This document shows, piece after piece, positions 32,284 through 50,181 of a stretch of 64,000 nt of DNA. The stretch covers positions 4,384,001-4,448,000 of the forward strand of contig OZ242005.1 in assembly GCA_965204725.1 (NCBI GenBank). The letters are read 5' to 3'. The stretch comes from Candidatus Latescibacterota bacterium. Its GTDB lineage: Bacteria; Latescibacterota; UBA2968; UBA8231. The notes under the pieces were generated by a model that was not told where the DNA came from, made no database searches, and saw nothing but the letters and a program-made list of their open reading frames with translations. The translations under genes and the position numbers were made by a program. Within the stretch, counting starts at the first letter, position 1. The number at the start of each line of letters is the position of its first letter.

Positions 32284-32358
32284 TGGTGCTCCCACGGAGA
32301 CTCGAACTCCGGCTACAGGGTTGAAAACCCTGGGTCCTAACCGCTAGACGATGGGAGC
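32284..32358 (-). tRNA. tRNA-Glu (anticodon TTC)
   Basis: GCTCCCATCGTCTAGCGGTTAGGACCCAGGG-TTTTCAA-CCCTGTAGCCGGAGTTCGAGTCTCCGTGGGAGCACCA: cloverleaf, TTCGA T-loop, encoded CCA. Confidence 0.97.
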
Positions 32359-33806: not shown

Positions 33807-35612
33807 TCAGTCCAATAGGGAAAATCCGGTGTAGCCGCGGCGGTCTTCCACGCCTTCTACGCCGCCTTGGGGAAAGTATTCCCCCCAGCGCCGGCTGACC
33901 TTTCGCGCGGTGTCTTCGTCCGCTATTAGCTCGTCCGGGTATCCGGGTTTCATGCGGCAATCCAAGACGATCGGCGGCGTATAGCAGGGGTGGTGGCGAC
34001 GAAGTTGGACGGCGGCGGGATAGGTGTCGGCCGCCGGCTCAAACCGGGTAAAGGTATTCCAAAGAAAGGTGATGTTCTTGGCTGCGGCGCGGGCGTCGTC
34101 CACTAAAAATATCAGCGGCCAAGCGGCGACGGCCCGGTCTTGGGCGAGGTGCTGGGCGTAGCTGGGATCTTCCTCGTACGTTGGGCCTTGCACCGCGAGG
34201 GCACCGGGGCAATAGACCTCGACGGCGCGGGCACCGCCGGGCAAGGCGTCGCTGAATTCCCGGGGCAATTCGCAGATCGGATCACCCACGCCTAGGAGGA
34301 TCCCTTTGCTGCCTTGGTTCACGGCCGGTCCTGTGTAGTCAAGGGTATCCATGGCGAGGTTGGCGATGACGAACAGGTCGGTTTCGAGCCGCGCCCGCGC
34401 TAGGGCATACGCGAGCACTTGCCGGAAGTCGCCCAAGTCCAAGGGGCGGTCGATTACGACCAAGAACTTGGTGAGGTTGAGCTGGCCGCCGTCCTCGCCC
34501 AAGATGCGAAAGGCGAATTTCATGGCCTCTCGTGGGTAGCGCTCCTCAACGACGATGGCCGCCAGCGAATGATAGCCGGTCTCGCCGTAGCTCCACATGG
34601 CCTTGATCGCGGGCATTACCAGCTTGCTCAAGGGCGTCATTAGCTGCTGGATGTAAGTGCCGAGGAACATGTCCTCCTGCGGCGGCTTGCCTACTACGGT
34701 GGCCGGGAAGATGGCGTCTTTGCGGTGGTAGAGACGCTTGGCTTGGAGCACTGGATAGTCGTGTTGCAGCGAGTAATAGCCGTAGTGATCGCCAAAAGGT
34801 CCTTCGGGCTGGCGCACGTGCGGCAAGACCACGCCCTCAATGGCGAATTCGGCTTCGGCAATAAGGGGCAGGCTGGGGCTTGGTACGCGGCGCAGGCGCT
34901 CGCCCTGCAACAGGGAGGCCAACATCAGCTCGGGCAAATCCTCGGGCAGGGGCGCGATCGCTGCTAGAATCAGGGCCGGCGGCCCGCCGACGAAGACGAC
35001 CAGCGGCAATTCTTCGCCCCGCTGCTCGGCGACGTGGTAATGGAATCCGCCGCCTTTCTGGATTTGCCAGTGGACGCCGAGGGTCTGAGAGTCGTGGCGT
35101 TGGATGCGGTACATGCCGAGGTTGTGGTGGCCGGTATCGGGGTGTTGGGTATAGACCAGCGGCAGGGTGATGAAGTGCCCGCCGTCCTCGGGCCAAGTTT
35201 TGAGCAGGGGTAAGCGCGCCAGATCGGGCGGCGACTGCACGCATTCGCTAATGGGGCCTTTGCCGACGGTCTTCAGCCCGACCTTCAGCGCAGCGGGGAT
35301 CAGGTTTTTGTGCGGCCAGAGCTTGCCCAGCGAGAGCGACGGCAGGTCTTGGGCCAACTGCACTAGCTGCGCGATAAACTGCTCCGGCCTAGGGCCAAAG
35401 GCCAAATCGACGCGCCGAGCCGTGCCAAAGAGGTTGGTGACGCAGGGAAAGTCCGCACCCTCAACGTGGGTAAAGAGCAGGGCCGGACCGGCCGCGGCGA
35501 GGACGCGACGATGGATCTCGGCGATTTCGAGCTCCGCGGAAACCGGGGCGTCCACGGTGACGAGCTCGCCTTCGCGGCGCAAGAGGTCGAGGAATTGGCG
35601 CAGGTTGTGCAT
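33807..35612 (-). CDS. UbiD-family decarboxylase (possibly the futalosine-pathway menaquinone type)
   Basis: NLGMYRIQ, HWQIQKGGGFHY, EGPFGDHYGYYS, ATVVGKPPQED, DTLDYTGP. Confidence 0.88.
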   Translation of the reverse strand: MHNLRQFLDLLRREGELVTVDAPVSAELEIAEIHRRVLAAAGPALLFTHVEGADFPCVTNLFGTARRVDLAFGPRPEQFIAQLVQLAQDLPSLSLGKLWPHKNLIPAALKVGLKTVGKGPISECVQSPPDLARLPLLKTWPEDGGHFITLPLVYTQHPDTGHHNLGMYRIQRHDSQTLGVHWQIQKGGGFHYHVAEQRGEELPLVVFVGGPPALILAAIAPLPEDLPELMLASLLQGERLRRVPSPSLPLIAEAEFAIEGVVLPHVRQPEGPFGDHYGYYSLQHDYPVLQAKRLYHRKDAIFPATVVGKPPQEDMFLGTYIQQLMTPLSKLVMPAIKAMWSYGETGYHSLAAIVVEERYPREAMKFAFRILGEDGGQLNLTKFLVVIDRPLDLGDFRQVLAYALARARLETDLFVIANLAMDTLDYTGPAVNQGSKGILLGVGDPICELPREFSDALPGGARAVEVYCPGALAVQGPTYEEDPSYAQHLAQDRAVAAWPLIFLVDDARAAAKNITFLWNTFTRFEPAADTYPAAVQLRRHHPCYTPPIVLDCRMKPGYPDELIADEDTARKVSRRWGEYFPQGGVEGVEDRRGYTGFSLLD

Positions 35613-35847
35613 GGCGGCTTGTGGTGGGGGTGGAAGGTCAGGTTGGTCTTGAATATATAGAAAGACCGGTCCGTTACAATGGATCGGTCAGCTTATAGGG
35701 AAATTCGTGGGGCTGGTTGAAGGCTGGGCTGGTTATCTATATATTGAAAAAATTGCAAAACGGGCACTGGTCCCACTGGATCACGAGGACGAGGCGTTGG
35801 AGTGCGAGGCGGTCCGGTATTGGGTGCTAGGATTGGGGCTCAAAGAG

Positions 35848-37980
35848 ATGAGATTGAAAAGGAAAATAACTGCACAATTCTGGGGGGCTAAAGGACTTAG
35901 CGTTCGTGCATCTAATTGTCTGTCAAGGGCAAATATTACAGACGAACAAGAACTAATCGAGAAAGTTACAACTCTTGATTTTCTGCTTGCCCTCAGAAAC
36001 TGTGGTAAACAAACAGCCGAAGAGATTTGGGCATTTCTCACGAACTTAAAATCTATCTCCAACCACCATCAAAGAGTAGAAGCTACATCGTCCAATTCGG
36101 GCGATGATCGTTCTGCCGAAGCACAATCAGTTTTTGTTCCGCTTTTGAACATAGAGGTATCCATACATATATGGGAAGTCCTCCAAAATACTCCTGTCGA
36201 TAGTATCCGATGGAGCGTTCGGACACAAAACGTAATCGGCTATCAGGGGTTGCAGGAACTAGCTGAGATTGCCGAACTTTCCCCTGAAGAGTGGCTCAAT
36301 TTTAGAAATTTCGGAGATACCTCTTTGACAGAAATTCAAGAGCGCACGGCAGAAATAATCGATCAACTTAGGGCTAACCCCGATGGTATTGAGCCGAGCA
36401 AAGAGCAATCTGTCTTTATTCCGCTTCTGAACACAAAAATATCCGCCCACACATGGGAAGCAATTCAAAACATGTCTATTCATCAATTCAACTGGAGTGC
36501 TCGAACACAAAATGTTCTCCGTCGGCAGGGCTTCAAAACGATTGCCGAGATTGCCGGATTTTCCCCTAGAGAGTGGCTCAATTTTGGCAATTTTGGACGC
36601 AAATCTCTGACTGAGATTCAGGAAACAGTTAATAGGATCGTTGCGAATACTGACCTGATATGTCTTGATTCGGTGAATGAGCATTCTGCTGAGGAGCTAT
36701 CTGAAAACTCTGGTGGTCGTCCCTTGCGTCCAAACGATCCCGGCTGGATTCCCGCTTTCGCGGAAATGACGACGAACGGCTCTACGGCTTGCCCAACACG
36801 ACCCAAGGTGGGTTTTCAGACAGATTCTGAAGTATCGCAGATTCAAACACTCGCCAACCTTGGCGACGTAGTTTTTCAATCCCTTCAAACTCGCCAACAG
36901 AAAATTATTGCATCCTACTACGGTTACAAGGAAGTACCTAAAAAATTACATCAAATTGGTGAAATGCTCGGAGTTACCCGTGAGCGAGTCAGGCAGATTA
37001 AGGCAGGGGTCAATAAGAAAATCAATCAAGGCGCGGACAACCACCTAATCAAAACCATAATCTCCTATCTATTGAGCCAGTCCATCTACGATGTTCTCGC
37101 GAAGGATGGTGGATGGTGTTCTGTCAAAGACCTCCGGGAAAGTATTCATCAGCGGCTGGGGTGGGAAGATAGCGATCAGTGGATTATCGACTGGTTTGAT
37201 GAAGCATTCGGCGAGGCGTGGATATGCTTAGGGACAGACGATTACAAAATTATTGATGGCACCTGTTATCTGAGATCAGAAGAACACATTAAAGATGTTT
37301 TTACAGAATTTGTGGCGAGACTTCAACGTTATGGCTATCGGCCTTTAGCATTGGAAGAATGCCAATATCTCATTCAAAAAAAAGACGAAGCTGATTTCGA
37401 TCCAGATTATCTGCTTAATAAAATTGTAAGCCATCCCGCTTTGAAAGTTCATCAGTATGGAAAAACACTCATCGGGCTAAAGGAGTGGACTTGGTTTAGT
37501 CCTGAAAAACCAACAACTGCCACAGGACTGGTCTCACTCATCGAATGGTATCTCCGAATGACCAATGAACCCACCACGGCAAAAGCAATTGCCAATGGGA
37601 TAGGGAGTGAACTCGGCAATTTTAGGTTGACGTCTTTTGATGTTGCCGACATCTGCGAAAAACAGCCTTATCTTTTTTTCGTAAATGACAATGGGACCTA
37701 TGGCTTAGACCTTTGGGAGAGAGCCCCAAAATATCGGCAAGCCCTCGCACGGTTACTGTCAGATGAACCGTTACCTATTGAGCGGATTGCCGAGCTATTG
37801 TCCCCCCAAGACCCAGAGGAGACGAGGCTTATTGTCGCAGTATTGAACTTTTATACAGATTTGTTTGTGGAAGCGATGCCTTTTGAGTGGACATTAAAGT
37901 TGCAGGAGGACAAAATTGAGGCAAAAATAGATTTTGACTATACTAGGCTCACTTTTGAAGACTTAATGCCTAAATTATGA
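35848..37980 (+). CDS. Protein with three RNAP alpha-CTD-like domains and a sigma70 region-4 HTH
   Basis: LSVRASNCLSRANI...RNCGKQTAEEI; WSVRTQNV...RNFGDTSLTEIQE; WSARTQNVL...GNFGRKSLTEIQE; LHQIGEMLGVTRERVRQIK. Start uncertain (35707 or 35848). Confidence 0.8.
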   Translation: MRLKRKITAQFWGAKGLSVRASNCLSRANITDEQELIEKVTTLDFLLALRNCGKQTAEEIWAFLTNLKSISNHHQRVEATSSNSGDDRSAEAQSVFVPLLNIEVSIHIWEVLQNTPVDSIRWSVRTQNVIGYQGLQELAEIAELSPEEWLNFRNFGDTSLTEIQERTAEIIDQLRANPDGIEPSKEQSVFIPLLNTKISAHTWEAIQNMSIHQFNWSARTQNVLRRQGFKTIAEIAGFSPREWLNFGNFGRKSLTEIQETVNRIVANTDLICLDSVNEHSAEELSENSGGRPLRPNDPGWIPAFAEMTTNGSTACPTRPKVGFQTDSEVSQIQTLANLGDVVFQSLQTRQQKIIASYYGYKEVPKKLHQIGEMLGVTRERVRQIKAGVNKKINQGADNHLIKTIISYLLSQSIYDVLAKDGGWCSVKDLRESIHQRLGWEDSDQWIIDWFDEAFGEAWICLGTDDYKIIDGTCYLRSEEHIKDVFTEFVARLQRYGYRPLALEECQYLIQKKDEADFDPDYLLNKIVSHPALKVHQYGKTLIGLKEWTWFSPEKPTTATGLVSLIEWYLRMTNEPTTAKAIANGIGSELGNFRLTSFDVADICEKQPYLFFVNDNGTYGLDLWERAPKYRQALARLLSDEPLPIERIAELLSPQDPEETRLIVAVLNFYTDLFVEAMPFEWTLKLQEDKIEAKIDFDYTRLTFEDLMPKL
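36693..36827. mobile_element. 135-bp MITE inserted in frame within a CDS
   Basis: Imperfect 18-bp terminal inverted repeats (GGAGCTATCTGAAAACTC / GGGTTTTCAGACAGATTC), TGA direct repeats on both sides, internal CTGGATTCCCGCTTTCGCGGAAATGAC palindrome, related copy at 61055-61138. Confidence 0.8.
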
Positions 37981-39617
37981 GAGATTCGCACCGAATGATT
38001 TTGCCGCAACATCAACAACCAATAACCGTTCGACTTGCGCGGGAAGAAGATATTGACGGCGCGAAGCGAATTGCGGATCAACACCGTACGGAATTGGGGT
38101 TTGTCAACATCGCCATTTTGCGGGTAGCACAAAGCAAAGAATGGCTTCTTGTTGCAGCCGAATGGGAGAATCAGAAAAAGTGTGATGTAGTCGTTGGATT
38201 TGCAAATTTTCGGATCAAACGAGATAAAAATGCAACGCTGTACGAAATTGCAGTAGTTGATTCACACAGACGTACAGGAGTCGGGACCCGTTTGCTGAGC
38301 GAATTAATTCGACGTGTTCATCTAGCGGGCGGGCAATATGTTCGTCTCAAGTGTCCACAAGATCTAAGTGCCAATAAATTTTACCAAAAATTCGGATTTC
38401 GGCATGGCGAAGCAGAGCAACGTAAGAAGAGACGGCTACAAGTGTGGTACTATCATATTCCCTTAATGCACGGCTCAGGAGCGGAAACATCAGTTACTCC
38501 TTTTATTCGCATAGCTGATAAGCAGGCTTTGCAGCAACCTTTCACATGGGAGAACGAACTTCACGCAACCGCACGTTTTTACGCTTCCCTGACAGTCAAA
38601 CCGGATGAAATGAGGACATTGCATCGCCTCTGGCATAAACATGCACACGACTTTGACTGGAAGTTCGGCAAACCGAATCCATTTCAACGAGTGCTTATCT
38701 CTCCCGTAGTTGCCCACAGGTACACCTTCGATTTCGTCCGAGAACTGAAACGGACAGGTGAAACGGAAGTGGTCATGTTCGATTCTGGTGGCTATTTCGT
38801 CCAGAAAGGAGACATCTCTTATTACGATCTTCATCGGAAACTCTATGAATACTATCAGCAGGAGGATTGGGCGGATATCTATGTTCTGCCAGATAATCCA
38901 CCACTCAGTGGAGACTCACTGCGTTCCGCAGAAGCGAAGATAAAACAAACTGTTGAGGGTAGCCTGCGACTTTACGGCGACCTTTCTTACGAAGTTCAGC
39001 AGAAAGCGATGCCTGTCGTTCACGCAACGAGAAGTGAACATCTCGACTATTGCCTGAGACAATACGCTAATTTTAAGAATATCGGTTTCGGCTCATTTCC
39101 AACAAGAGGAACTTCAAATTCTATCAACCGATTGAACATCAACGCGCTAATGATTCTCCGACAACTGACTCGGATGCTGGATTCTGAGGATGTAAAACTA
39201 CATACCTTTGGTATTTCAACACCACCCGCAATTTACCTGCTATCGCTGGCTGGTGTACATTCTTTTGACTCTAATGGTTGGATGCGGTCTGGTGGATATG
39301 GTAAGGTATTCCTCCCATTTATGCGGGGCTATCTAGTCACTTTCAATTCTCGGAGGAATGGGAGTTTGAATGAAACAGAATTCAAATTGTGGAAAGAAAA
39401 TATAAAGCATGATTGTCCGTTCTGCGGTTCCTTCGAGCGGCTTTCAAATAACCGATGGGATCGAATTATGCACAATCTGATAGTTATGTCAGAGTTAGAA
39501 ACACATCAAAGGACACCCCGAACTGATATGTTACGAGAGTTATCAGGAACGTACTATCGTATGTCACAAAGCTTGATAAGTGAAGACTTGTGTCCTGTTA
39601 GTAATCACGACCTTTAA
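37977..39617 (+). CDS. GNAT acetyltransferase fused to a tRNA-guanine-transglycosylase (TGT/DpdA)-like domain
   Basis: GNAT: LYEIAVVDSHRRTGVGTRLL, ANKFYQKFGF. TGT-like: MFDSGGY, LPDNPP, MPVVHA, IGFGS, LHTFGI, SFDSNGW, zinc-site-like HDCPFC...MHNL. Confidence 0.8.
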   Translation: MRDSHRMILPQHQQPITVRLAREEDIDGAKRIADQHRTELGFVNIAILRVAQSKEWLLVAAEWENQKKCDVVVGFANFRIKRDKNATLYEIAVVDSHRRTGVGTRLLSELIRRVHLAGGQYVRLKCPQDLSANKFYQKFGFRHGEAEQRKKRRLQVWYYHIPLMHGSGAETSVTPFIRIADKQALQQPFTWENELHATARFYASLTVKPDEMRTLHRLWHKHAHDFDWKFGKPNPFQRVLISPVVAHRYTFDFVRELKRTGETEVVMFDSGGYFVQKGDISYYDLHRKLYEYYQQEDWADIYVLPDNPPLSGDSLRSAEAKIKQTVEGSLRLYGDLSYEVQQKAMPVVHATRSEHLDYCLRQYANFKNIGFGSFPTRGTSNSINRLNINALMILRQLTRMLDSEDVKLHTFGISTPPAIYLLSLAGVHSFDSNGWMRSGGYGKVFLPFMRGYLVTFNSRRNGSLNETEFKLWKENIKHDCPFCGSFERLSNNRWDRIMHNLIVMSELETHQRTPRTDMLRELSGTYYRMSQSLISEDLCPVSNHDL

Positions 39618-39627
39618 TGGAGGAACA

Positions 39628-40440
39628 ATGGTGCGCTCGCACATCTTAAAAGGATTTTCGGACTTGGAGTCGGCATTGTGGGTCCACAAATATCACCCTG
39701 GACTTAAAACAATTCGGAAAATGGTCAAAACCGCTTCGGAAAATGGATACACAGTAACGGATACAGCGCGTTATGAAGCGGTTCAGCTATTAAGCGAATG
39801 GGGATTAGCGGATGGAAAAAGCAGGTCATTAACTCCCGAGGGCGAGGCTTTCTATTCCTTGTGGGAAACGAAACGAAGTACCGCAATTGATTTTCTGCAC
39901 GCACGGCAATACGGTCTATGGACACAAAACGCCCCTGACCAAAACATTGCGTCGTGGGCGTACAAAAATATCTGTGACTACCTGTGGGTACGGCAAACGC
40001 TTCCGGGAGATCGGGATCTGGTGGCTTATATACATGACCTCCGAGCCTCTGACGAAGTGGTGATTCCACCGGACATCGGCAATGCGTTCTCCAATAAATC
40101 GATCAATGACGCTTACGATTGGCTCCTGCCGTTAGACCCGCCTGTATTAGAGAAGGACAGCGCGACGTTTGCACAACGGCCATTCTGTTCAACACCACTT
40201 TTTGTGATGGGGCTCGGTTATCTCGTGCGAGAATCCGATACGGCATTTGGGGATTTGGTTAAAATTGACGAAGCGCGAAAACAGGCCATCTGTCGCTTCT
40301 GTCTTATTGACGAAACCGGTTTCGATCTCATGCTTGACGAGGCATTGCGCCAAGTCTCGTACCTTTCGGTGCAACGGAGTTGGGAAGGAATTTACATGGT
40401 GTTGCATCAGGCACCGCAAATCGAAGATTTCATAGATTAA
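39628..40440 (+). CDS. Uncharacterised 270-aa island protein (possibly BrxA/DUF4007-like winged helix)
   Basis: GGAGG RBS before ATG 39628; LSEWGLAD...LTPEGEAF resembles a winged-helix wing. Family call is weak. Confidence 0.5.
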   Translation: MVRSHILKGFSDLESALWVHKYHPGLKTIRKMVKTASENGYTVTDTARYEAVQLLSEWGLADGKSRSLTPEGEAFYSLWETKRSTAIDFLHARQYGLWTQNAPDQNIASWAYKNICDYLWVRQTLPGDRDLVAYIHDLRASDEVVIPPDIGNAFSNKSINDAYDWLLPLDPPVLEKDSATFAQRPFCSTPLFVMGLGYLVRESDTAFGDLVKIDEARKQAICRFCLIDETGFDLMLDEALRQVSYLSVQRSWEGIYMVLHQAPQIEDFID

Positions 40441-40469
40441 TAAGGATAAGAAAATAATCTACAAACGAA

Positions 40470-41003
40470 ATGCGTTGGCAATCTTATCATAGGAAACTTC
40501 TCGCATTAGCGGAAACTAACGAGACTTTGACGGCCTCCCAGCAGGTGGTCTGTCAATTTTTGCAACAGGAGATTAGAGACTACCAGCAACGCATTGATCT
40601 CTGGGGTGCTCCGGGCGTTGGCAAGACGTTTCTCGCGCACCATCTCCATCACTGTGCAGACGGTCTCTATTTTTCGTCTGTAGAAACTTGTTCACACACA
40701 GAAGTTTCCCCAAATTCGGTGGTTATCATTGACAACGCACCGCATGACCGAAGTTCAGCGCGGTCAATTTTCGGGGACATGCTTTGGGCAGGTGCGTCGT
40801 CGGTCATTTTGGTGACACGCCAACCCATCAACGATGCGGTTCGGAGCGTTGAATTGGGCTTAACAGTTCAGGAATTGGCACAAGTTGAGGATGTGATGCG
40901 TAGGATTTTCGGCCATTTCCCGCCCGATGACCTGCGCGATGTTGACCACCTCCGTTGTGAAATTTGGCAACGGCTTAAAATTCTCGCGGAACGAAAATTA
41001 TAA
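40470..41003 (+). CDS. Small P-loop NTPase (BrxB/BrxF-like role inferred from position)
   Basis: Walker A GAPGVGKT, Walker B VVIIDN. Confidence 0.7.
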   Translation: MRWQSYHRKLLALAETNETLTASQQVVCQFLQQEIRDYQQRIDLWGAPGVGKTFLAHHLHHCADGLYFSSVETCSHTEVSPNSVVIIDNAPHDRSSARSIFGDMLWAGASSVILVTRQPINDAVRSVELGLTVQELAQVEDVMRRIFGHFPPDDLRDVDHLRCEIWQRLKILAERKL

Positions 41004-41018
41004 AAAGGAGATTCTGAT

Positions 41019-44000
41019 ATGGCTTTAGCCGAAATCATCCGAAAAAGCACTGTGGTCGATACACCACGTGCGTCAGACCTCGCGACGAGGCCAGCGGAAT
41101 GGACAGATATCTTTCAATTTCACGTCTCGACGCATGTCGCGATAGCCGATATGACAGATAAGTGGGATGCGATTCTCAAAAACCTCCTGCGCGGCCGTTC
41201 GGCAACAGGACTCATCCACGCCGATACGGGTTACGGCAAAACCTCGACCGCAGCCGCGCTTTGGCATTATGCGGAACAACGCGAGATTGTCGCGGTTCCG
41301 CCATTTGTGTGGAATAGCATCGCCGACATGCTCATTGCAACTCACGGGTGGGTCTGCCATCGCTTGAAGGCGAAGAGACCGGATCTGATTCTTGGTTTAG
41401 TGGAGCAGTATGAGAGGCTGATTGCGAGTAGTGACGAAGACAGGGCGGTTAAAATAAGCCAAGAGCAAGATGTTCCGCTCGATTATGCCAGAAAGTCTGT
41501 CCAGTCCCTCAAAGCGCAGGGCGATCTAATGGATGCGGTTTCTGCAAATCGCCTCATTGACTACTTGCGAATGGCGACTTCAACTCTTTTGGAGGCGGAA
41601 TACAAAGGGTTGCTCATTCTGCCAGATGAGTTCGAGCTTTTTGCCGATACGAATCCAGACATCGCCAAGAATTTCGCGGAACTCAAGGACTTTATCTTTC
41701 CCATTTTCCAAGAAGATAGCCTTCCAATAGGCTGCGTGGTTTTGACCTACAGCCGAACATTTTCCGATATCCAACTCAGAGCACCTTACATATTTGCCCG
41801 ATTCGACAAGCCTGAAGGGAGTTTGATCGATCTTGAGCAAGCATACGGAAAAATTGAAGAAAACAGGTCCTTCGCTCACGAACTTTGGGAGAAGTTATCC
41901 GTTGGATGTAACCTAACCGACGAGGAGCAAAAGGCAATTGATCCAGATGTGCTGTTTGCCCTCGGGCAATTTTTGGGACACCCGCGTACGCCCCAACTGA
42001 TTAGCGGCCCTCGGTCTGTCGTTGCAACGTTTCGCCGTGCCGCAAAACACTACGGTGAAAAAAAACAGCCTTATTCCATTTTCGATTTTTGCGAAGACTA
42101 TATCTCTCAAGGTCTCATTTGTTTCAACAACCAAGAAATCGACGCGGTCAAAGCGCATACCTCTATCATGAGCCAGCCCATCATTGGTGCTGATGAGGCA
42201 CGACAGCGTGTTGTTAAACTGCTGTGCGTCTGTCCAGATGGCGTACCGGAGGAATTTTTTAGGAAGCACGGTATTTCCGATGAAGATCGCTTGGCGGTTG
42301 TCCAAGGGTTGTTGGGCACACACGTCATTACGAAAATCATTGGGCCGGCCTTAACCGGCTACAAGGATGATTTGCAAGCCGGTGACGCGCTCATCGAGAT
42401 TCTCAAAATTCTGCGGAGTCAGTACAATCCCGCGAGTGAAGAAACCCATCGCGCCGCTGTCAGATCATTTGCGAATTACATTTTGCCCGAAGTTCTTCAA
42501 CAACGCACGGGAGCTGCTCACACGGGTTGGAGAGATCTGGAAAAGACGGAGGGGGATATAGAACCGATTTTTCAGGCTCGACTCACAGGGACGTCTCTTC
42601 GGGATTATCCGCAACGGACTCTGACTGTGCATGTTGGAACCGAGAAATTTCAAAAAATTAGTCCTGCCTACCGAGAGAGCCAGTTGTTCACTTCTTTTAT
42701 TTTTCGGACTCAAGGTGAATCATCGAGTCATAGTCCAAACACCTGTGATATTCGCGCAGATGGTCTCTACTTTAGCCTCAACATCTCCAAAGCAATCGGC
42801 AACCGGGAAATTCCAAAAGATATTGGCAAACTCGGCGACCTTTTTTTGCCAGAGTCCGTTACCCCTTCGCTACTCCTGTCTATGCTTGACTTCTTTGACC
42901 AAGAAACGACTATCGCCAAAATCAAGGAGCTAAAACAGGAAACACATGTAAAGCTCTTGAAGTCCCGAATCCGAGACCAACTGATCGGCTACTTCTTTTC
43001 CGCTGAGGTCAAGACGAGTGCCGAATCACAGCAGGCAGATTTGGCACAAGTACCTGCAGGGAAAAATTTTGTCGAACGGGCCTTGGGCGTACTGATAAAG
43101 AAAAAATTCAAATCATATCGCTCTGTCGCAGTCTCACACCAATGGCAAAAGAATTTGGGAATCTACATGCAGGCATTGTCGAGAAATGCCGAAAGTCTCG
43201 GCATGCGGCGCGGTGAGGAACCTACTAGAGAGATGACTGCTAGCGAAGTACCAAGGCTGTTCAATGTTGGTCAGCACACCACTTTTGCCCATACGCTCTA
43301 CCCAAACGGTGTTTTGCGCGATCTCTTGCTCGTCAATGAAACTGACGCCAATGGCAAAACCATAGCGGAAGGCGTTGAAGTTAAAAATAACCAAAGTCCA
43401 GTCGTGGTCTATTTTAAGCTACATGACGTGGAAAAGCGCGTTCTAGAAATGCTTGAAGCAAGCACGGAAAGCATTGACGTTGATGGTAACTCGGTCAACG
43501 CAGTGAAATACCACGAGGTTTTCCAACAGGAAGAGAGCCTGGGATACCTCAATACTGAGATTGAAGAGTTAATCAAGTTATTGACGACAAGGGGCTTGGT
43601 CGATAAAAGACAGTATCGAGGGATGGATTATCTGTATCGTGTTGAGACGGAGATCAATTTGGCCGAACTGCAACGCAGGTTCAACCGACTCAAGGATCTT
43701 GAGGCACTGGCAAAATCAAAAGACTTCGACTTCACACTGAAAATAGACGGGGATCACTCTTTTGAATCAGTGCAGGCAGATTTCCGAATAAACGACATTG
43801 GGGCCAATGAAGTCCGCAAGGATTCACTGCGGCAAAAGCTCAATTCGATTGAGAACGCTTTCAAGACACAGTGTACGGAGTGGCTAATGAAAGCCCAAGA
43901 GGAACTCAGTCGAAAAGCCCGAGAGATCGAAATATTGAGGTTGGATCCGCCGAATGTACTGAAGCAAGAAACCGGACACCCGGCAACCGAGTTCTCAGTC

Positions 44001-45122
44001 CTACTATTTCAGGATATACGCAATGAGATTCGGAAGGCTTACAGTGCTATTCCCCAAGAAATAGACAAAGTTAAAAAACAAGCACAAGCAATCCTCAATA
44101 AGAAGATACAAGAATATCTGTCCAACCAAATCCCTGAAAAGGCGATTACAGTGGCGGCAGATTTTCGCGGTTCCATGCAGACGATTGACAAAGAGATCGA
44201 AGCACTCCGAGAGGAGCGTTCAGAAGCTGAACTGCTTTATGAGTTATTTGAAAAATGGCGCAACCTCGCTAGAGATGTTGAGCGTAATCGACTGACGATG
44301 ACAGATGCCCAAGAGATTGATGGGGTAAAAAGTCTCTGTGATAGGCTGGACGAGGAACAGAAGCGGATTAAACGCTATCTTGCGGATCGGACGAAAACTG
44401 TCAAGCAGGTTCTGGAAAACTACGAGTACTTTTTCAATCAAATTGCCGCGATCAAGGGCGAATTTGACCAAGTCTCTGAACGCCGCAAAGATGAGTTTAT
44501 CCGGTTTCAAGCCGATATTGAAGACCAACTCCGTCAACTCATTGACAAACCCGATATTGGCGAACAATTCAATCCCAACGACGTAGAAGGATCGTACAGC
44601 CGAGTCCGCGAAAAAGCGGTTGGGAAGATTCAGGAATTTGTCATCAAATCCGCAATTCAGCGTATTACAGAACTGAAAAGCGAATTGATGAAACCGCTTG
44701 AGGTTTTTACCGTCAGTGACCAGATCAAAAATCAGGCAAAGGAAATGAGCGACGCGTTATATGCTTTGGAGGAGAGGATCAACGAGATGAACGTTGGTCT
44801 GAAACCCGATGACGTTAATGACCTGTTGTCTGCATGGGTGGAATCGCTCAAGTCTATTCGTGAGGCGGGAAATGAGGTTTTCACAAAATGGGAAGGCATT
44901 CAAGATCAACTCAGATGTGACAAAAGTGAGTTGGGTCCGAAGGAAGTAGTGCTGCTGGATATGATTGAAGCTAATGCGGATAAGGATTTCACAGAACTGA
45001 TTATCGATCTCAGGCAGTCAAAAAATAAAGTGTTCGGTTCGACTTCAGAGATCATTGAGAGTCTTGAAGAGTTATATCAACGCAATTGGTTGAACATCAA
45101 AATCTCACGAACGATAGGATAG
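41019..45122 (+). CDS. Large BrxC/PglY-like ATPase with C-terminal coiled coil
   Basis: Walker A ADTGYGKT, Walker B LLILPDEFE, GPRSVV motif; the last ~450 aa are heptad-rich; AAGGAG RBS. Confidence 0.7.
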   Translation: MALAEIIRKSTVVDTPRASDLATRPAEWTDIFQFHVSTHVAIADMTDKWDAILKNLLRGRSATGLIHADTGYGKTSTAAALWHYAEQREIVAVPPFVWNSIADMLIATHGWVCHRLKAKRPDLILGLVEQYERLIASSDEDRAVKISQEQDVPLDYARKSVQSLKAQGDLMDAVSANRLIDYLRMATSTLLEAEYKGLLILPDEFELFADTNPDIAKNFAELKDFIFPIFQEDSLPIGCVVLTYSRTFSDIQLRAPYIFARFDKPEGSLIDLEQAYGKIEENRSFAHELWEKLSVGCNLTDEEQKAIDPDVLFALGQFLGHPRTPQLISGPRSVVATFRRAAKHYGEKKQPYSIFDFCEDYISQGLICFNNQEIDAVKAHTSIMSQPIIGADEARQRVVKLLCVCPDGVPEEFFRKHGISDEDRLAVVQGLLGTHVITKIIGPALTGYKDDLQAGDALIEILKILRSQYNPASEETHRAAVRSFANYILPEVLQQRTGAAHTGWRDLEKTEGDIEPIFQARLTGTSLRDYPQRTLTVHVGTEKFQKISPAYRESQLFTSFIFRTQGESSSHSPNTCDIRADGLYFSLNISKAIGNREIPKDIGKLGDLFLPESVTPSLLLSMLDFFDQETTIAKIKELKQETHVKLLKSRIRDQLIGYFFSAEVKTSAESQQADLAQVPAGKNFVERALGVLIKKKFKSYRSVAVSHQWQKNLGIYMQALSRNAESLGMRRGEEPTREMTASEVPRLFNVGQHTTFAHTLYPNGVLRDLLLVNETDANGKTIAEGVEVKNNQSPVVVYFKLHDVEKRVLEMLEASTESIDVDGNSVNAVKYHEVFQQEESLGYLNTEIEELIKLLTTRGLVDKRQYRGMDYLYRVETEINLAELQRRFNRLKDLEALAKSKDFDFTLKIDGDHSFESVQADFRINDIGANEVRKDSLRQKLNSIENAFKTQCTEWLMKAQEELSRKAREIEILRLDPPNVLKQETGHPATEFSVLLFQDIRNEIRKAYSAIPQEIDKVKKQAQAILNKKIQEYLSNQIPEKAITVAADFRGSMQTIDKEIEALREERSEAELLYELFEKWRNLARDVERNRLTMTDAQEIDGVKSLCDRLDEEQKRIKRYLADRTKTVKQVLENYEYFFNQIAAIKGEFDQVSERRKDEFIRFQADIEDQLRQLIDKPDIGEQFNPNDVEGSYSRVREKAVGKIQEFVIKSAIQRITELKSELMKPLEVFTVSDQIKNQAKEMSDALYALEERINEMNVGLKPDDVNDLLSAWVESLKSIREAGNEVFTKWEGIQDQLRCDKSELGPKEVVLLDMIEANADKDFTELIIDLRQSKNKVFGSTSEIIESLEELYQRNWLNIKISRTIG

Positions 45123-45127
45123 CGATT

Positions 45128-46255
45128 ATGCTAGACCTTTTAGAGAATCTTCCCTGTATAACCGACCTGCCAGAAACGACGCTAGGGCTGTGGGAAATAT
45201 GCCTGTCTGATATTTGGTGTCCCAATTCGCTGGCAGAATGGCGAGGTGTTGTTGATGCACCACGGGAAGTTCCCACAAAGGCGACGCTTTTTGTGAATTT
45301 TTCAGAGGCTGAAAGTAAAGAATTGACGGACACTTTCGGTTTCCCTACGATTGATCTCCCGGCGGTTCCCCCAATCGAATGGGTAAATCAGAAATTGCCC
45401 GACCGTTTTAGTGCCTTGTGTACAGATGAATCGAAACTCTTAAAACAATCACAACTCGCCCAAACCGTTACAGATCGCGTATCATACATGCTTCCCGACA
45501 TTGTTGTTTTTATGGTACTCGATGGGCTGTCATCGTATGATGTCACAGACTGGTCATTCCCAGAACCTTGGCGTGTAGTGTGTGAGCCGTGTCTTGTTGA
45601 TGGACTAAGTGTCACAACAAACAGTATGTGTCGATTGATCGGATCACCACCTTTAACGCATCGTTTGTTTGAGTTAGGGTACGTACAGCGACTTGGCTTT
45701 TCATATTGGGAACGCTCTCGAAACCAACTTACCAACGTACTCTTTTCTGAATTTCCACCAAGCCAACTGTTTCGCTTCACAACCTTTGAAGAGATTTTAG
45801 ATAGATTGCAGAATACGGACTTACCTAATCGAACTTTCATCCAAATCGTCCGCACAGGACTCGATGGAGTCTGCCATAGTCATAGAGAAAAGCCGAATAT
45901 AGATATTATGCTTAACCAGCTTAAATTGGATATTGAACAAATTTTTGAAGCAGTTGGCTCATCTCAGAAAGTCGTGCGGATTTTTGTAACTAGCGACCAT
46001 GGAATTCTTTGGTTCACAGAACAAAAAGTGAAGCCGTTTAAGTCGGGCAGTACTTCTCCCCGTTACACTTATGCGAACCCCTCATCTGACGTGTCTGGAA
46101 TCACTATTGCTGAAGCTGGAGAGACGTTTACAGTCTTAACAGGCGATGAAGTCATCGCTAGAAACCGAAAGGTGACGGAATGGGGATTTCATGGCGGAGT
46201 TTCTGCACAAGAGTCTTTTATTCCGTTATTCGACATTACCCTAAATAGTAGGTGA
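45128..46255 (+). CDS. PglZ-like alkaline-phosphatase-superfamily protein
   Basis: VFMVLDGLS, SVTT nucleophile region, LDGVCH, VTSDHG, FHGGVSAQESFIP. Confidence 0.85.
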   Translation: MLDLLENLPCITDLPETTLGLWEICLSDIWCPNSLAEWRGVVDAPREVPTKATLFVNFSEAESKELTDTFGFPTIDLPAVPPIEWVNQKLPDRFSALCTDESKLLKQSQLAQTVTDRVSYMLPDIVVFMVLDGLSSYDVTDWSFPEPWRVVCEPCLVDGLSVTTNSMCRLIGSPPLTHRLFELGYVQRLGFSYWERSRNQLTNVLFSEFPPSQLFRFTTFEEILDRLQNTDLPNRTFIQIVRTGLDGVCHSHREKPNIDIMLNQLKLDIEQIFEAVGSSQKVVRIFVTSDHGILWFTEQKVKPFKSGSTSPRYTYANPSSDVSGITIAEAGETFTVLTGDEVIARNRKVTEWGFHGGVSAQESFIPLFDITLNSR

Positions 46256-46260
46256 TTCAA

Positions 46261-47469
46261 ATGGCAGAGATCAACTTGCGAATTGGCACTGAATACGAAA
46301 ACGGCGAACTAATTTATATGAACGCAACAGGGTCACGCGCCGTATTCATTTGCGGCAAGCGTGGTTCTGGCAAAAGCTACACGATGGGCGTCATCATCGA
46401 AGAACTGTTCAACCAAGAACAAGGCGAGGCAACAATTATCATCGCCGATCCGATGGGGATCTACCACACGATGGCTCTCCCGAACCACACTCAAGCAGAT
46501 GAAGTTCGTCATGCCGGATTCCTTACCAGCGGCTTTCCAGTTCGGCTCATTGTCCCTGGCGACCCCTTGGTTCGATACGGAGATGCAGTGGTGTTGGCGA
46601 AACTGCGAGAGAACGGCGTCGAGGTTGTTCCGCTCCAAATTAACGCCGCAGACCTCTCTCCCGAGGCTTGGTGCGAACTATTTGACATCAGCATGAACGA
46701 AGTGATGGGGATCATTTTGTGGCGAGCAGTTGATACACTTCTCGAAAAAGACCAGCATTTTACTATTGATGACATCCTTGCGGCAATCGAGAGCGATCCA
46801 AGAGCAAAAGATACCTCTAAAGAAGCTTTGGAAAACCGTTTAACGGCGGCGAATAGATGGGGAATCTTCTCAGAAGACCCCACCTCATTGAATGACGTGT
46901 TTCTCTTGAACCAGATCAATGTTTTAGACCTAAGTGTGATTGATGCGGGTACAAAAGGACTACGCAACATGGTGCTTGACGTTGTAGCCCATCGTCTTTT
47001 TTCTGAACGAACACGAGAAAGACGTAGAGAAGAATTTGGTTTGTCAACGAAGCTACCACGGGTTTGGCTGGCGATTGATGAAGCCCATCAATTTGTGCCG
47101 AAAGGACGAGCCTCGCTCTGCAAGGAAATGCTCATTCGTTGGGTAAAGGAGGGACGGCAACCCGGTCTCAGCCTCGTCGTAGCGACGCAACAGCCGGCCG
47201 CGATTGATCCTGAACTGTTATCACAATGCGACGTCATTGTCGCGCACAAAATTACAACTTGGGACGACATCAATGCACTTGACCGACTGAGTGCAACATA
47301 CATGGCGGGAGACTTAAAGGGCTATATTCGCAACTTGAATCGCAGGGGTGAGGCTCTACTGGTTGATGATGAAACCGAGTCTGTTACGACAATTCGAGTC
47401 CGCCCGCGATTTAGTTCGCACGGCGGTGCTGAAATTCAAGAGAAGACTGTGAGGAAATTTTTATTTTAG
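46261..47469 (+). CDS. HerA/FtsK-family (DUF87-like) ATPase
   Basis: ICGKRGSGKSYT, DPMG, LAIDEAHQFVP, KEGRQPGL, VATQQP, LSQCD. Confidence 0.88.
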   Translation: MAEINLRIGTEYENGELIYMNATGSRAVFICGKRGSGKSYTMGVIIEELFNQEQGEATIIIADPMGIYHTMALPNHTQADEVRHAGFLTSGFPVRLIVPGDPLVRYGDAVVLAKLRENGVEVVPLQINAADLSPEAWCELFDISMNEVMGIILWRAVDTLLEKDQHFTIDDILAAIESDPRAKDTSKEALENRLTAANRWGIFSEDPTSLNDVFLLNQINVLDLSVIDAGTKGLRNMVLDVVAHRLFSERTRERRREEFGLSTKLPRVWLAIDEAHQFVPKGRASLCKEMLIRWVKEGRQPGLSLVVATQQPAAIDPELLSQCDVIVAHKITTWDDINALDRLSATYMAGDLKGYIRNLNRRGEALLVDDETESVTTIRVRPRFSSHGGAEIQEKTVRKFLF

Positions 47470-47506
47470 CGTCTAATTCACGTCTCCTATCTCCGAAAGG
47501 CTTTCC

Positions 47507-50181
47507 ATGACTACACATAACGACGAATTCGGTGCGCGCACCCGGCTAGAATGCAGCGGCGGTAGCGGCGTCCTGTACCGCATTCAAACGCTAGAAGAAG
47601 AGGGCATAGCCGAGGTGAGCCGGCTGCCCTATTCGATCAAAATTCTGCTAGAGGCCGCGCTCCGGCAGTGCGACGGGTTTGAGATTACCCGCGAGGATGT
47701 CGAGCGCATTGCACGCTGGAGTCCTGAGATGGCGGGCAAGGAAGAGATTCCCTTCAAGCCAGCGCGCGTGGTGATGCAGGATTTTACCGGCGTCCCCGCC
47801 GTGGTTGACTTGGCCGCGATGCGCGACGCGGTGGCCGATTTGGGCGACGACCCGGAGAAGGTCAATCCCCTGATTCCGGTTGACTTGGTCATCGATCATT
47901 CGGTCCAAGTCGATTACTACGGCATGCGCGAGGCACTGGCCATGAACGCCGCCCGCGAGTTCGAGCGCAACCGCGAGCGCTACGAGTTTTTGCGCTGGGG
48001 CCAGAAGTCCTTTGACAATTTTCGCGTGGTGCCGCCGGCCACCGGCATCGTGCATCAGGTCAATCTAGAATATCTGGCGCAGGTGGTGCAGGAGCAGGAC
48101 GGCGCGTTCTACCCCGACAGCCTAGTGGGTACGGACAGCCACACGACGATGATCAACGGCCTCGGCGTCCTCGGCTGGGGAGTGGGCGGCATTGAGGCCG
48201 AAGCCGTGATGTTGGGGCAGCCGATCTACATGCTTTTGCCCCAAGTGGTCGGCGTCAAGCTAACGGGCGCGTTGCCCACTGGAACGACGGCTACGGACTT
48301 GGTGCTGACGGTGGTGCAGATGCTCCGGGCGCATGGCGTGGTTGGCAAATTCGTCGAATTTTACGGCCCGGGCTTGAGCGAACTGAGCTTGGCCGACCGG
48401 GCGACCCTCGCCAATATGGCCCCGGAATACGGGGCGACGACGGGCATTTTCCCGGTTGACGAGGAGACGCTGGCCTACTTGGTGCTCACCGGGCGCAAAA
48501 AAGCGGTGGTCGAGCGAGTCCGCGCCTACATGGAAGCGCAGGGTATGCTCTACCGCGCCGAGGGGCCGGACCCCGTCTTCAGCGAGTACTTGGCATTGGA
48601 TATGGGGACCGTTGAGCCGAGCTTGGCCGGCCGACGCGGCCGCAGGATCGGGTCCCGCTCAAGGACGTGCCAACGGCCTTCGCCGCCTCGCTGACAGACC
48701 GCTTTGAAGTGGCAGACCGCGGCAAAAAGGTCGCCGTCAATTTGGGCGAGCAGGGGGCGGTTGAGCTGGCCCACGGCGCAGTGCTCATCGCCGCCATTAC
48801 CTCCTGCACGAATACCAGCAACCCGAGCGCGATGGTGGGGGCGGGGCTGTTGGCGCGCAATGCAGCCGAGCGGGGCCTCTCCGTACCGGCTTACGTCAAG
48901 ACCAGCTTGGCACCGGGCAGCCGGGTCGTTTCCCGCTACCTCGACGCGGCTGGCCTCACCGACAGCCTAGAGGCCCTCGGCTTCCACACGGTCGGCTACG
49001 GTTGCACGACCTGCATCGGCAACTCAGGGCCTCTGCCGGAAGAAATCGCCGCGGCCGTGGCCGACAACGACTTGGTGGTGTGTAGCGTACTCAGCGGCAA
49101 CCGCAATTTCGAGGGCCGGGTCCACGCGACGACGAAGGCCAATTTCCTCGCCTCGCCGCCTTTAGTCGTGGCCTACGCGCTCGCGGGCCGGGCGACGATC
49201 TCCTTTGAGCGCGAGCCGCTGGGCCGCGACCAAGCCGGCCGCGAGGTATTCCTGCGCGATATATGGCCCTCGCCGGACCAGATCCGCGACGCACTGGCCC
49301 ACTCGCTGACGCCCAAGATGTTCGAGGAAGAATACGGCAATGCGTTCCGTCAAAACGAAACTTGGAACGCCATTCCCGTGCCCGAGGGCAAGCGCTACGC
49401 TTGGGCCGAGGAGAGCACGTACATTCGCAAGCCGAACTTCTTCGACGGCCTCACCAAAGAGGCCCAGCCGATCCAGCCGATTCGAGGCGCACGAGTCTTA
49501 GCCCAGCTCGGCGACAGCGTGACGACCGACCACATCTCGCCGGCCGGTGCGATTGCCGTAGGCAGTCCCGGGGCCGAGTATCTCGCCAGCCGCGGCGTTG
49601 AGCGCAAGGATTGGAACAGCTATGGCTCCAGACGCGGCAACCACGAGGTGATGATGCGGGGCACGTTTGCCAATATCCGCATCCGCAATGAGCTGGTGCC
49701 CGGCGTTGAGGGGGGTTATACGCGCCATCTGCCTTCGGGCGAGCAGATGACCATTTACGAGGCGGCGATGCGCTACGGAGCGGAAGGCGTCCCGTCGATC
49801 GTTATCGCGGGCAAGGAGTACGGAGCGGGTTCGAGCCGCGACTGGGCGGCCAAAGGCCCCTTCCTGCAAGGCGTCAAGGCCGCCATCGCCGAGAGCTACG
49901 AGCGCATCCACCGCTCAAACCTGATTGGGATGGGCATTCTGCCGCTGCAATTTTCCCCCGGTGAAGACCGCCACGCGCTGGGGCTGACCGGCGAGGAAGT
50001 GTACGACGTCGAGGGCCTCGACGACGACTTACAGCCGGGGCAGGTGTTGGAGGTGGTCGCCCAGAGCACGGCAGGCGAGAAGTGCTTTGCGGTGATATGC
50101 CGGATAGACACTCCCGTGGAGATCAACTACTACCGCAACGGGGGGATCCTGCACACAGTACTCAGGCGGATGGCCGAGTAG
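47507..50181 (+). pseudogene. acnA: Aconitate hydratase A, split by an apparent 1-bp deletion near 48631 (pseudogene or sequence error)
   Basis: [31 protein letters not shown] in the first ORF; AITSCTNTSNP, GYGCTTCIGNSG, TTDHISPAG, GSSRDWAAKG in the second. One extra C restores [14 protein letters not shown]. Confidence 0.9.

Follow-up and report, generated by a model that had tools for sequence, protein, structure and literature searches.

The window analysed here is a 64,000-nt stretch of DNA from a Candidatus Latescibacterota bacterium (assembly GCA_965204725.1, contig OZ242005.1, positions 4,384,001 to 4,448,000). It contains an operon of eight genes (g1 to g7 in Table 1, g2 being a fusion), in which the open reading frame (ORF) g2 joins a GNAT acetyltransferase domain to a TGT-like barrel. 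The operon is very probably a defence operon of the kind recently described as BREX-Related Capture (BRC). Within it, g2 probably labels the cell's own DNA as self by writing in a base that derives from a queuosine precursor and is possibly acylated.

Table 1. Features of the operon, of the fusion gene g2 and of the flanking DNA, numbered along the window (AF2, AlphaFold2).
Feature	Positions	Strand	Basis
g2, GNAT-TGT fusion protein, 546 aa	37977..39617	+	Open ORF, Pfam, AF2 model
g2, GNAT domain, residues 15-161	38019..38459	+	AF2 model span, Pfam match
g2, disordered linker between domains, residues 166-191	38472..38549	+	pLDDT <50
g2, TGT-like (beta/alpha)8 barrel and zinc subdomain, residues 191-538	38547..39590	+	Fold matches, motifs
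g2, D269-S-G-G272	38781-38792	+	Catalytic motif, invariant
g2, D306	38892-38894	+	Invariant residue
g2, H409	39201-39203	+	Invariant residue
g2, F430-D431-S432	from 39264	+	
g2, D431, putative nucleophile	39267-39269	+	
g2, zinc-like H478-x-C480-x-x-C483	39408-39425	+	
g2, H499 of the zinc-like site	39471-39473	+	
g1, 757 aa, three RpoA-CTD-like HhH units and sigma-70 region 4	35707..37980	+	Pfam
g3, SspB/DUF4007-like (BrxA-like) three-part DNA-binding protein, ~270 aa	39628..40440	+	Fold
g4, small P-loop NTPase, 177 aa	40470..41003	+	Walker A G46-A-P-G-V-G-K-T53, hhhhD Walker B
g5, ATPase, 1367 aa	41019..45122	+	AAA_16 E 0.0016
g6, short PglZ/alkaline-phosphatase-like protein, 389 aa	45086..46255	+	Weak profile matches
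g7, HerA/FtsK-type translocase, 405 aa	46252..47469	+	Pfam DUF87 3.3e-19
Low-GC island with the whole eight-gene operon	35700..47500	+	GC windows, Pfam-named flanks
UbiD-like gene, left flank of the island	33807-35612	-	Pfam
Aconitase gene, right flank of the island	from 47507	+	Pfam

The N-terminal part of g2 is recognised by Pfam as a GNAT domain: PF00583 matches residues 58-141 with an E-value of 6.9e-12 and scores 46.1 bits, well over its cut-off of 20.7. It contains the acetyl-CoA motif R98-R-T-G-V-G103, of the form R98-x-x-G101-x-G103 (nt 38268-38285), and the second GNAT motif A132-N-K-F-Y136...F139-G-F141, in which Y136 (codon nt 38382-38384) is the probable general acid. An AF2 model of g2, built from a 30-sequence alignment, has a pLDDT of 85.5 and a pTM of 0.85. 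In this model the GNAT domain superposes on Ard1 (4r3k) with a Z score of 20.9 and a root-mean-square deviation of 1.5 Å over 139 aa, followed by Naa10 (4kvm, Z 20.6), a second Ard1 structure (4pv6, 20.3), a second Naa10 (6c95, 20.1) and RimI (5isv, 20.0). Public records name the homologues of the fusion only 'GNAT family N-acetyltransferase' or 'RimI-like', and because they carry no other name, the TGT half is invisible to ordinary annotation.

The C-terminal part fits human QTRT1 and the archaeosine TGT (ArcTGT) with Z scores of 24.7-25.1 over 294-312 residues at 3.1-3.3 Å. The individual matches are QTRT1 7nq4 (Z 25.1 over 312 aa at 3.3 Å) and the ArcTGT structures 1j2b (Z 24.9) and 1iq8 (Z 24.7 over 300 aa, 17% identity), with bacterial TGT 3unt at Z 21.6. 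A wider comparison against PDB structures gave DpdA (7ui4) a Z of 20.9 over 289 aa and Cap10 (9ntn) 18.7 over 270 aa, the lowest among the TGT families. When a profile of the barrel was searched against PDB sequences, three true relatives alone were returned, ArcTGT at 8.1e-4, DpdA at 0.027 and Cap10 at 0.21. Besides the motifs in Table 1, the key barrel residues include Y273, H349 and G370-F-G-S-F374. A preliminary description of this DNA, made from the letters alone, had claimed an intact GNAT with both of its motifs, two catalytic Asp motifs, and a zinc-like site HDCPFC...HN in which His replaces the first Cys. The GNAT claim is borne out by the Pfam match, the motifs and the fold; the other sites were located as described (DSGG at nt 38781, FDS at nt 39264, H478-C483 and H499-N500), and the Z scores of 24.7-25.1 confirm the TGT fold that it had assigned to the C-terminal domain.

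Like DpdA of the DpdA/DpdB/DpdC system, g2 is a TGT-fold enzyme in a defence island with three invariant Asp residues and a putative structural zinc site. The two also share a base-stacking aromatic residue four positions past the first Asp and, probably, a substrate from the queuosine pathway. Judged by motif order and spacing, D269, Y273, D306, H349 and D431 would correspond to Asp95, Phe99, Asp130, His181 and Asp256 of DpdA, and H478, C480, C483 and H499 to its zinc ligands Cys368, Cys370, Cys373 and His395 (PMC10164549). An hhalign comparison of the family profile with the genome's own bacterial tgt (E 0.03, probability 1.7, of use for lining up motifs only) backs this correspondence only loosely. 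The zinc motifs differ, H-x-C-x-x-C-x15-H in g2 against C-x-C-x-x-C-x22-H in DpdA (CXCX2CX22H in PMC10164549), and the His of g2 stands where the other TGT families have the first Cys. The large Ins8 four-helix bundle of DpdA appears to have no counterpart in the g2 alignment.

Conservation and substitution rates were compared between the domains. Among 33 non-identical TGT domains, D269, S270, G271, G272, Q276, D306, G370-F-G-S-F374, H409, F411, G412, D431, W435, H478, C480, C483, R496, H499 and N500 are all invariant. Across 38 GNATs, the conserved positions are D83 and F135 (37 each), G103 and N133 (35 each), Y136 and C126 (34 each) and R98 (33). Relative to six close orthologues, the ratio of nonsynonymous to synonymous substitution rates (dN/dS) is 0.13-0.19 in the GNAT and 0.05-0.15 in the TGT; in the linker, which varies in length in the homologue alignment, it is 0.39-1.08 or saturated. 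Both domains are under purifying selection, and the linker is not. From its kept catalytic residues and this selection, the g2 enzyme looks active. GNAT Pfam domains occur in 88 of the 120 homologues listed (439-557 aa), and the remaining 32 lack them and are 333-349 aa long; PF01702 is precomputed in just five of the 88. A misassembled chimera was set aside because the fusion recurs in those 88, and a decaying GNAT because of its dN/dS.

One alternative is that the enzyme acts on protein. Cap10, which works with Cap9 in type IV CBASS, is like g2 a barrel of the TGT family that serves in defence against phages. Its Asp/Ser/Asp base readout and its Asp/His catalytic pair are intact, and it handles a 7-deazaguanine with an amide at position 7. 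It differs in having neither the zinc site nor surfaces for nucleic acid, and in acting on a protein N-terminus together with the QueC-like Cap9. The barrel of g2 might in the same way bind or transfer a protein-linked 7-deazaguanine, or its GNAT might acetylate the N-terminus of a system protein, and both the fold and profile matches to Cap10 and the GNAT's likeness to Ard1, Naa10 and RimI would fit. However, H478, C480, C483 and H499 are kept in 33 of 33 domains here, and ArcTGT, bacterial TGT and DpdA all outscore Cap10, the least similar of the families. The operon has no QueC-like (Cap9) or CD-NTase gene by PADLOC, NCBIfam and Pfam, and its SspB-like, HerA and PglZ-like products handle DNA. 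We consider a protein target improbable.

A DNA mark, the reading that we prefer, gains from the company that the TGT-like gene keeps elsewhere. Seventy-one loci were sampled: 11 genome loci, 57 metagenome loci found by a HerA alignment scan of contigs, and 3 extra Chloroflexota loci. The genome loci lie in metagenome-assembled genomes (MAGs) labelled Latescibacterota (8), Gemmatimonadetes, Anaerolineae and Poribacteria; genes g2-g7 are conserved in 10 of the 11, and also in metagenome loci. A TGT-like gene occurs in 4 of 401 Chloroflexota genomes, namely G008 (= L008) and the three with the new loci. Of 35 loci with a TGT-like gene, 33 also have a GNAT (10/11 genome, 20/21 metagenome and 3/3 extra Chloroflexota loci), in three arrangements. 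The two are fused in 15 loci and the window, adjacent with GNAT before TGT in four (L024 and L081-L083), and separated in 14, where the TGT comes early and a GNAT behind HerA closes the operon. When 27 TGT domains were placed on a tree, the fused and adjacent forms fell on one side and the 14 split forms on the other, the deepest branch being weak. Nine of the 11 genome loci have a gene of ~600-800 aa resembling sigma-70/RpoA-CTD 5' of the TGT, as do 12 metagenome loci; three further metagenome loci have it 3' of HerA.

Several loci vary on this plan. L011 (10072-16254), counted as a locus without GNAT, has a TGT part with no GNAT match, followed by g3, g4 and a g1-like gene downstream; g5-g7 were not found in it, and it looks like a decayed or rearranged copy. 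In L024:291-1748 the GNAT and TGT lie in one frame with a lone stop codon (726-728) between them, a layout that would fit two adjacent unfused genes, read-through of the stop or a sequencing error. L053 has neither a TGT-like nor a GNAT gene. It belongs, with L052 and L054, to one lineage of the HerA/PglZ/ATPase/DUF4007-like operon, and directly 5' of its DUF4007-like gene stands a B12-binding radical-SAM gene of 473 aa (L053:282-1703). One modifying enzyme may here have been exchanged for another as a module. The sigma-like companion (for example L036:1-2346, L037:3-2408, L062:176-2317 and L068:1-2193) is usually the first gene, and carries, depending on the locus, sigma regions 1.1, 2, 3 and 4, or HhH repeats with HARE-HTH.

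Some of the relatives also carry genes for the supply of a queuosine precursor. Six of the 71 loci (L044, L051, L055, L057, L081 and L082) contain a QueF or QueF-like gene. Three of these genes exceed the Pfam cut-off, that of L057 with 78.3 bits, that of L055 with 65.3 and that of L044, which stands 36 nt upstream of the TGT, with 82.1; the L051 copy is 98% identical to the L055 gene. In L082 (26.2 bits, cut-off 27.3) and L081 (17.5 bits) a divergent QueF-like gene ends an operon of GNAT, TGT, a 273-aa and a 1233-aa protein; aligned to the QueF of the window's genome, both keep the Cys-Pro and E-x-K-[AS]-L-x-x-Y-L motifs. The place of this gene is taken in L083, alone among the 71, by a PF02592 transporter (181.7 bits). 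PF02592 is YhhQ/COG1738, required for salvage of preQ0 and of preQ1 (7-aminomethyl-7-deazaguanine) in E. coli, and the only known role given for QueF is to convert preQ0 to the amine-bearing preQ1 (PMC5372724). The 71 loci and the window together span 906 kb, in which about 0.2 QueF genes are expected by chance, taking one per ~5-Mb genome.

For the window itself, the preliminary description had stated that no dpdB, dpdC or queCDE genes are present, and had called for the genome to be checked for the que pathway. That check found tgt (556 bits), two QueC, QueF and QueA, all outside C1:4384001-4448000, so the queC part of the statement holds; for Dpd genes only the operon proteins were scanned, and none was found. 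A blastp search with the genome's two QueC and its QueE-like protein found none in 68 loci; QueD and FolE were not searched. QueF and QueC each exceed the family cut-off in 9 of the 10 other genomes with the fused operon. In the fused clade, the window included, que genes are supplied in trans by the host. The two QueC copies of the genome lie at C1:4681893-4685501 (L016) and C1:3238097-3240831; one is near QueF, and downstream of the other come a QueE-like radical-SAM gene and one of the creatininase family. Two QueC matches also occur in 4 of the 10 other operon genomes (G001, G002, G003 and G006).

The loci with linked precursor genes have further features of their own. In the QueF-linked clade a second BREX-like set follows the GNAT (L055:11641-19479, L057:11634-19466, L051:7936-15774 and L044:10420-18307), encoding proteins of ~270 aa, ~190 aa (P-loop), ~1325 aa and ~815 aa (PglZ/phosphodiesterase), with no second HerA. 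The Chloroflexota operons are compact (L081:2535-8883, L082:2550-8880 and L083:997-7751, from G190, G353 and G385), running in the order GNAT, TGT, 273-aa protein and ~1230-aa ATPase, then the QueF-like gene or the YhhQ-family transporter. By tblastn, no HerA or PglZ-like gene was found in the stretches of L081-L083 that were covered, and this compact operon may be a modification-only form of the system. In L081 and L082 a large ATPase and a g3-like protein are encoded a second time, as a pair convergent to the operon; none was seen in L083.

The anatomy that the preliminary description gave for the protein stands. What it missed is that g2 is one module of an eight-gene BREX/Ssp-like defence operon anchored by HerA. 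The same kind of system has been described in silico as BRC by comparative genomics alone, from 45 taxa (PMC12839542, Nucleic Acids Research (NAR) 2026). Its components, according to the main text of that paper, are PglZ, a DUF6079/BrxC-like ORC/Cdc6 AAA+ ATPase, a STAND NTPase, DUF4007, HerA, GNAT and TGT. HerA is universal there, the GNAT is 'occasionally fused with TGT', and DpdB and DpdC are lacking (PMC12839542). Self-marking by a 'putative GNAT/TGT-driven modification' was proposed, with a mark that 'is perhaps restricted to dPreQ0 alone' and with the substrate of the GNAT left unassigned (PMC12839542). The window operon fits this list: HerA, GNAT, TGT and the DUF4007-like fold were all found, and it has candidates for PglZ, the large BrxC-like ATPase and the small NTPase. 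It differs in that g5 has no DUF6079 match and g3 no DUF4007 Pfam match, these two being assigned by fold or lead match only. Two further differences concern the studied loci, of which the sigma-like gene is a regular eighth member, and the relatives, in which QueF or YhhQ is linked. The kind of system and the fusion are thus already described, and the present locus is another member. QueF, preQ1, QueC and queuosine have no occurrence in the main text of PMC12839542, in which 'RpoA' is likewise absent and a sigma component is not given for BRC. New here are the GNAT-TGT co-occurrence, the purifying selection, the QueF/YhhQ linkage and the modifying-enzyme slot shared with Ssp and BREX type 4; the chemical prediction of an acyl-preQ1 is absent from the main text of that paper.

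The remaining operon genes are tightly packed on the same strand, with 4-nt overlaps at g1/g2, where the stop of g1 overlaps the start of g2, and at g6/g7. In g1, PF03118 matches three stretches (4.8e-35) and PF04545 one (8.9e-10), and PADLOC and NCBIfam give weak matches to PglW and MzaA. The mechanical ORF of g3 starts at 39580, and its orthologues begin at residue 17 of it. The AF2 model of g3 (pLDDT 91.7) superposes on SspB 6juf, the top Foldseek match, with Z 15.4 over 252 of 270 residues at 3.8 Å, and it also fits BrxA 7zge (Z 9.6) and 3bhw (Z 9.0); by sequence no Pfam family matches, DUF4007 included. The AAA matches of g4 are weak and the BrxB model gives none; g4 may be what BRC has as its 'active BrxB-like STAND NTPase'. 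PF10923 (BrxC_BrxD) is found in 20% of the members of the Atlas neighbour cluster of g5 (score 0.96) and in 3 of the 120 homologues listed, among which DUF6079 is found in none; g5 is a candidate divergent BrxC/SspC-like protein. For g6, NCBIfam gives BREX_PglZ_2 (6.5e-5) and BREX_PglZ_4 (8.4e-4), both far under their cut-offs, and PADLOC gives PglZ (0.003). The Pfam PglZ model scores 0.12 on g6 and 0.0013 on its L008 orthologue, which also matches Phosphodiest (6.9e-5); no PDB sequence matched g6. The translocase g7 matches PADLOC HerA (2.7e-23), mad8 (1e-22) and DndH (1e-7), and HerA 8xau in the PDB (2.8e-14).

The GC content of the island is 0.44-0.52 in 2-kb windows over 36001-48000, against 0.58-0.65 elsewhere, and the island was acquired horizontally. 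At its edges there is no integrase and no tRNA gene, the sole tRNA being a tRNA-Glu at 32284-32358. A scan for promoters and terminators over 35000-48000 gave numbers at chance (15 against 13.3 expected, and 16 against 13.3).

What the GNAT-TGT fusion might do in such an operon can be approached by comparison with the Ssp and BREX type 4 systems. In these, DNA is modified by a 3'-phosphoadenosine 5'-phosphosulfate (PAPS) reductase, which either cooperates or is fused with DUF4007/SspB and a BrxC/SspC ATPase (PMC12914056). The DNA phosphorothioation modules SspBCD and BrxP-BrxC (BREX-4) resemble the window in that the modifying enzyme neighbours a DUF4007/SspB protein and an ATPase of the BrxC/SspC kind, for which g5 is the candidate in the window; BREX-4 has PglZ as well. 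In the window the GNAT-TGT lies directly 5' of the DUF4007-like gene. They differ in that their enzyme is a sulfur inserter of the PAPS reductase type, where the window has a putative base-exchanging TGT with a GNAT, and HerA in addition. This comparison bears on the possibility that g2 is instead an effector, the barrel excising guanine from invader DNA, becoming trapped on it, or reading deazaguanines of phages, with the GNAT as a modulator. TGT chemistry does run through a covalent enzyme-nucleic acid intermediate (PMC10164549), and the operon has no obvious classical nuclease besides the PglZ-like protein. However, g2 stands next to the DUF4007-like gene, where Ssp and BREX-4 have their modifying enzyme. 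The linked QueF and precursor transporter genes point to the supply of a replacement base, and an effector of this kind would be a danger against which the chromosome had to be guarded. We find this role very improbable.

A decorated preQ1 in DNA, as a self mark of the kind we favour would require, has a precedent in phages. N-formyl- and N-methyl-preQ1 occur in phage DNA and are made by enzymes that are not GNATs (10.1101/2023.04.13.536721), in agreement with the statement of the preliminary description that decorated preQ1 derivatives are known there. In these phages DpdA is accompanied by DpdN (formyl-preQ1) or DpdM (methyl-preQ1), QueF is co-encoded, and the 7-aminomethyl group of preQ1 is decorated in the DNA. 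In chemical terms, the N-acyl-preQ1 proposed for the window would directly parallel the phage fdPreQ1. DpdN differs in being a PurN-like PF00551 formyltransferase with a folate donor, not a GNAT, and the phage systems shield phage genomes, whereas the system of the window sits in a cellular defence operon. Unlike the Dpd systems, the window operon has no DpdB or DpdC, its GNAT is fused or linked to the TGT, and the QueF linkage suggests preQ1 and not preQ0. The words 'acetyl' and 'GNAT' are absent from the text of 10.1101/2023.04.13.536721. A description of an acetyl-preQ1 DNA base was not found in the literature searched, which did not cover supplements.

We propose that g2 would be the nucleic-acid-marking enzyme of a horizontally acquired, BREX/Ssp-related and HerA-anchored operon of the BRC type. 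In its barrel D431 would serve as nucleophile and D269 as acid/base, with D306, H349 and Y273 holding the base, and guanine in the cell's own DNA would be swapped for a 7-deazaguanine of the host pathway, most likely preQ1, made by a QueF whose gene is part of the locus or lies elsewhere in the host genome. The tethered GNAT could acylate the primary amine of this base, before or after insertion, with acetyl- or another acyl-CoA, leaving an N-acyl-preQ1 mark. The products of g3, g4 and g5 would bring the enzyme to DNA and power the insertion, and PglZ and HerA would act on unmarked invader DNA. Activity, DNA target, preQ1 base and amine acylation are what we infer here, and they are not equally secure. 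Use of a base from the queuosine precursor pathway is likely, and the recruitment of QueF into loci suggests preQ1 over preQ0. DNA is the target that we somewhat favour, because the SspB-like, HerA and PglZ-like neighbours handle DNA, because g2 holds the slot of the PAPS reductase in Ssp and BREX type 4, and because the zinc subdomain lost in the protein-directed Cap10 is kept. Since the GNAT is a near-obligate partner, N-acylation of the 7-aminomethyl group is the obvious next step, yet that the GNAT acylates the base is advanced only tentatively. The whole chain, ending in an acyl-preQ1 mark on DNA, is possible but doubtful, and a new DNA base, N-acyl-preQ1 (probably N-acetyl), as the self mark of a BREX-like, HerA-driven immunity is, if anything, slightly more so. 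The exchange of a base by the TGT and acylation of the preQ1 amine by the GNAT had both been suggested in the preliminary description; the partnership in 33 of 35 loci and the QueF/YhhQ linkage support that suggestion, with product and target remaining predictions.

A number of observations weigh against this proposal. PF01702 matches g2 residues 290-488 at E 3e-4 with 20.4 bits, under its cut-off of 26.3, although the L082 relative passes with 34.5 bits. The DpdA models of PF23859, PADLOC and NCBIfam give no match to g2 at E <= 0.01, and those to relatives are weak (L050 at 2.8e-5 with PADLOC, L082 at 0.0014 with Pfam). The beta6-alpha6 loop of the barrel, G-F-G-S-F-P/A/G-T, is unlike both the preQ0-type and the preQ1-type loops given in PMC10164549, and the inserted base is therefore unreadable from sequence. 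DpdA requires DpdB and ATP in vitro (PMC10164549), and no Dpd family, DpdB and DpdC included, is among the PADLOC, NCBIfam and Pfam matches of the seven operon proteins. The top five folds for the GNAT, all within 1 Z, are protein N-terminal acetyltransferases, and the top NCBIfam match of g2 is rimI. QueF/YhhQ linkage occurs in other clades only, with no case in the window or in the fused-clade loci. G008 has the fused operon and a normal tgt, with QueC and QueF undetected; because this MAG is fragmented, the absence is weak evidence. L062 has a TGT-like gene without a GNAT within 1.9 kb downstream, and because of this the GNAT may be dispensable. The identities of g4, g5 and g6 rest on weak matches, and an experimental study of any member of the system was not found in the literature. 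Lastly, the closest fold and the closest profile match of the barrel is ArcTGT, a tRNA enzyme.

This last point raises an RNA target. The fusion could modify tRNA or another RNA, either as a housekeeping-like modifier or as an effector triggered by infection in the manner of GNAT toxins, of which some acetylate charged tRNA. Besides the fold, ArcTGT gives the sole profile match below 0.001 and shares the H-x-F-G...F-D-S arrangement with g2, and the host already makes preQ1 for tRNA. However, the function of ArcTGT is tRNA maturation and the context of g2 is a defence operon. The ArcTGT match is aligned at the catalytic domain only (chain residues 14-353 of 577); g2 ends ~45 residues past H499, and the C-terminal domains of ArcTGT, which are its tRNA-binding part, have no counterpart. 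The genome also has its own canonical tgt (556 bits), the operon has no antitoxin-like small gene, and a DNA-centred operon of the BREX/Ssp/HerA type surrounds the fusion's counterpart in 10 of 11 genome loci. We give an RNA target little credence. A stand-alone toxin-antitoxin pair built on the GNAT was set aside, there being no small partner gene and the operon being conserved.

If the target is DNA, the mark might still be plain preQ0 or preQ1, inserted by the same exchange, with the GNAT acetylating a partner protein or another DNA amine, or acting as a regulator. The dPreQ0-only proposal of PMC12839542, which leaves the role of the GNAT open, is of this form, and bacterial DpdA is preQ0-specific (PMC10164549). 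The locus L062 and the protein N-terminal acetyltransferases among the GNAT folds would also be accommodated. However, the GNAT is kept with the TGT in 33 of 35 loci, in three arrangements including the fusion, and it is under purifying selection. Moreover, QueF is needed only for the amine-bearing preQ1 and is present in 6 loci. We therefore regard the plain mark as unlikely, though it deserves to be kept in view.

Should the acylated mark be correct, immunity of the BREX family would label self with a hypermodified deazapurine in addition to methyl or sulfur groups. It would be the third self mark of the family, beside N6-methyladenine and phosphorothioate, and the natural bases would gain an acylated preQ1. 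It would also be the first preQ1 derivative in cellular (non-phage) DNA and the first GNAT known to act on a deazapurine. The QueF/YhhQ linkage shifts the published prediction of dPreQ0 alone and gives the GNAT a concrete, testable job. The locus is compact, one fusion protein with two to four helpers, and its precursors are also made by E. coli.

A few minor observations concern the genome and the window at large. A second TGT-family gene of the genome (C1:5078167-5082195; L013:225-4028) encodes a protein of 397 aa matching PF01702 (83.5 bits) and PADLOC DpdA (1.3e-4). It lies between a BrxD/BrxC-like ATPase and a PD-T4-4_A/AAA_15-like ATPase, and the locus looks like another deazaguanine-related defence locus. 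Twenty sequencing runs from 8 studies, several labelled sponge metagenome, are listed as carrying the sequence, all in the form of Logan contigs and with no RNA run among them. Right after the island, the aconitase gene (47507-50181) is split in two overlapping ORFs of 395 aa (model 9-293) and 504 aa (model 319-463 and Aconitase_C), which points to a frameshift or an assembly error. At 2001-4000 of the window the strand bias is unusually strong compared with the rest, with a GC skew of +0.247 and an AT skew of -0.247.

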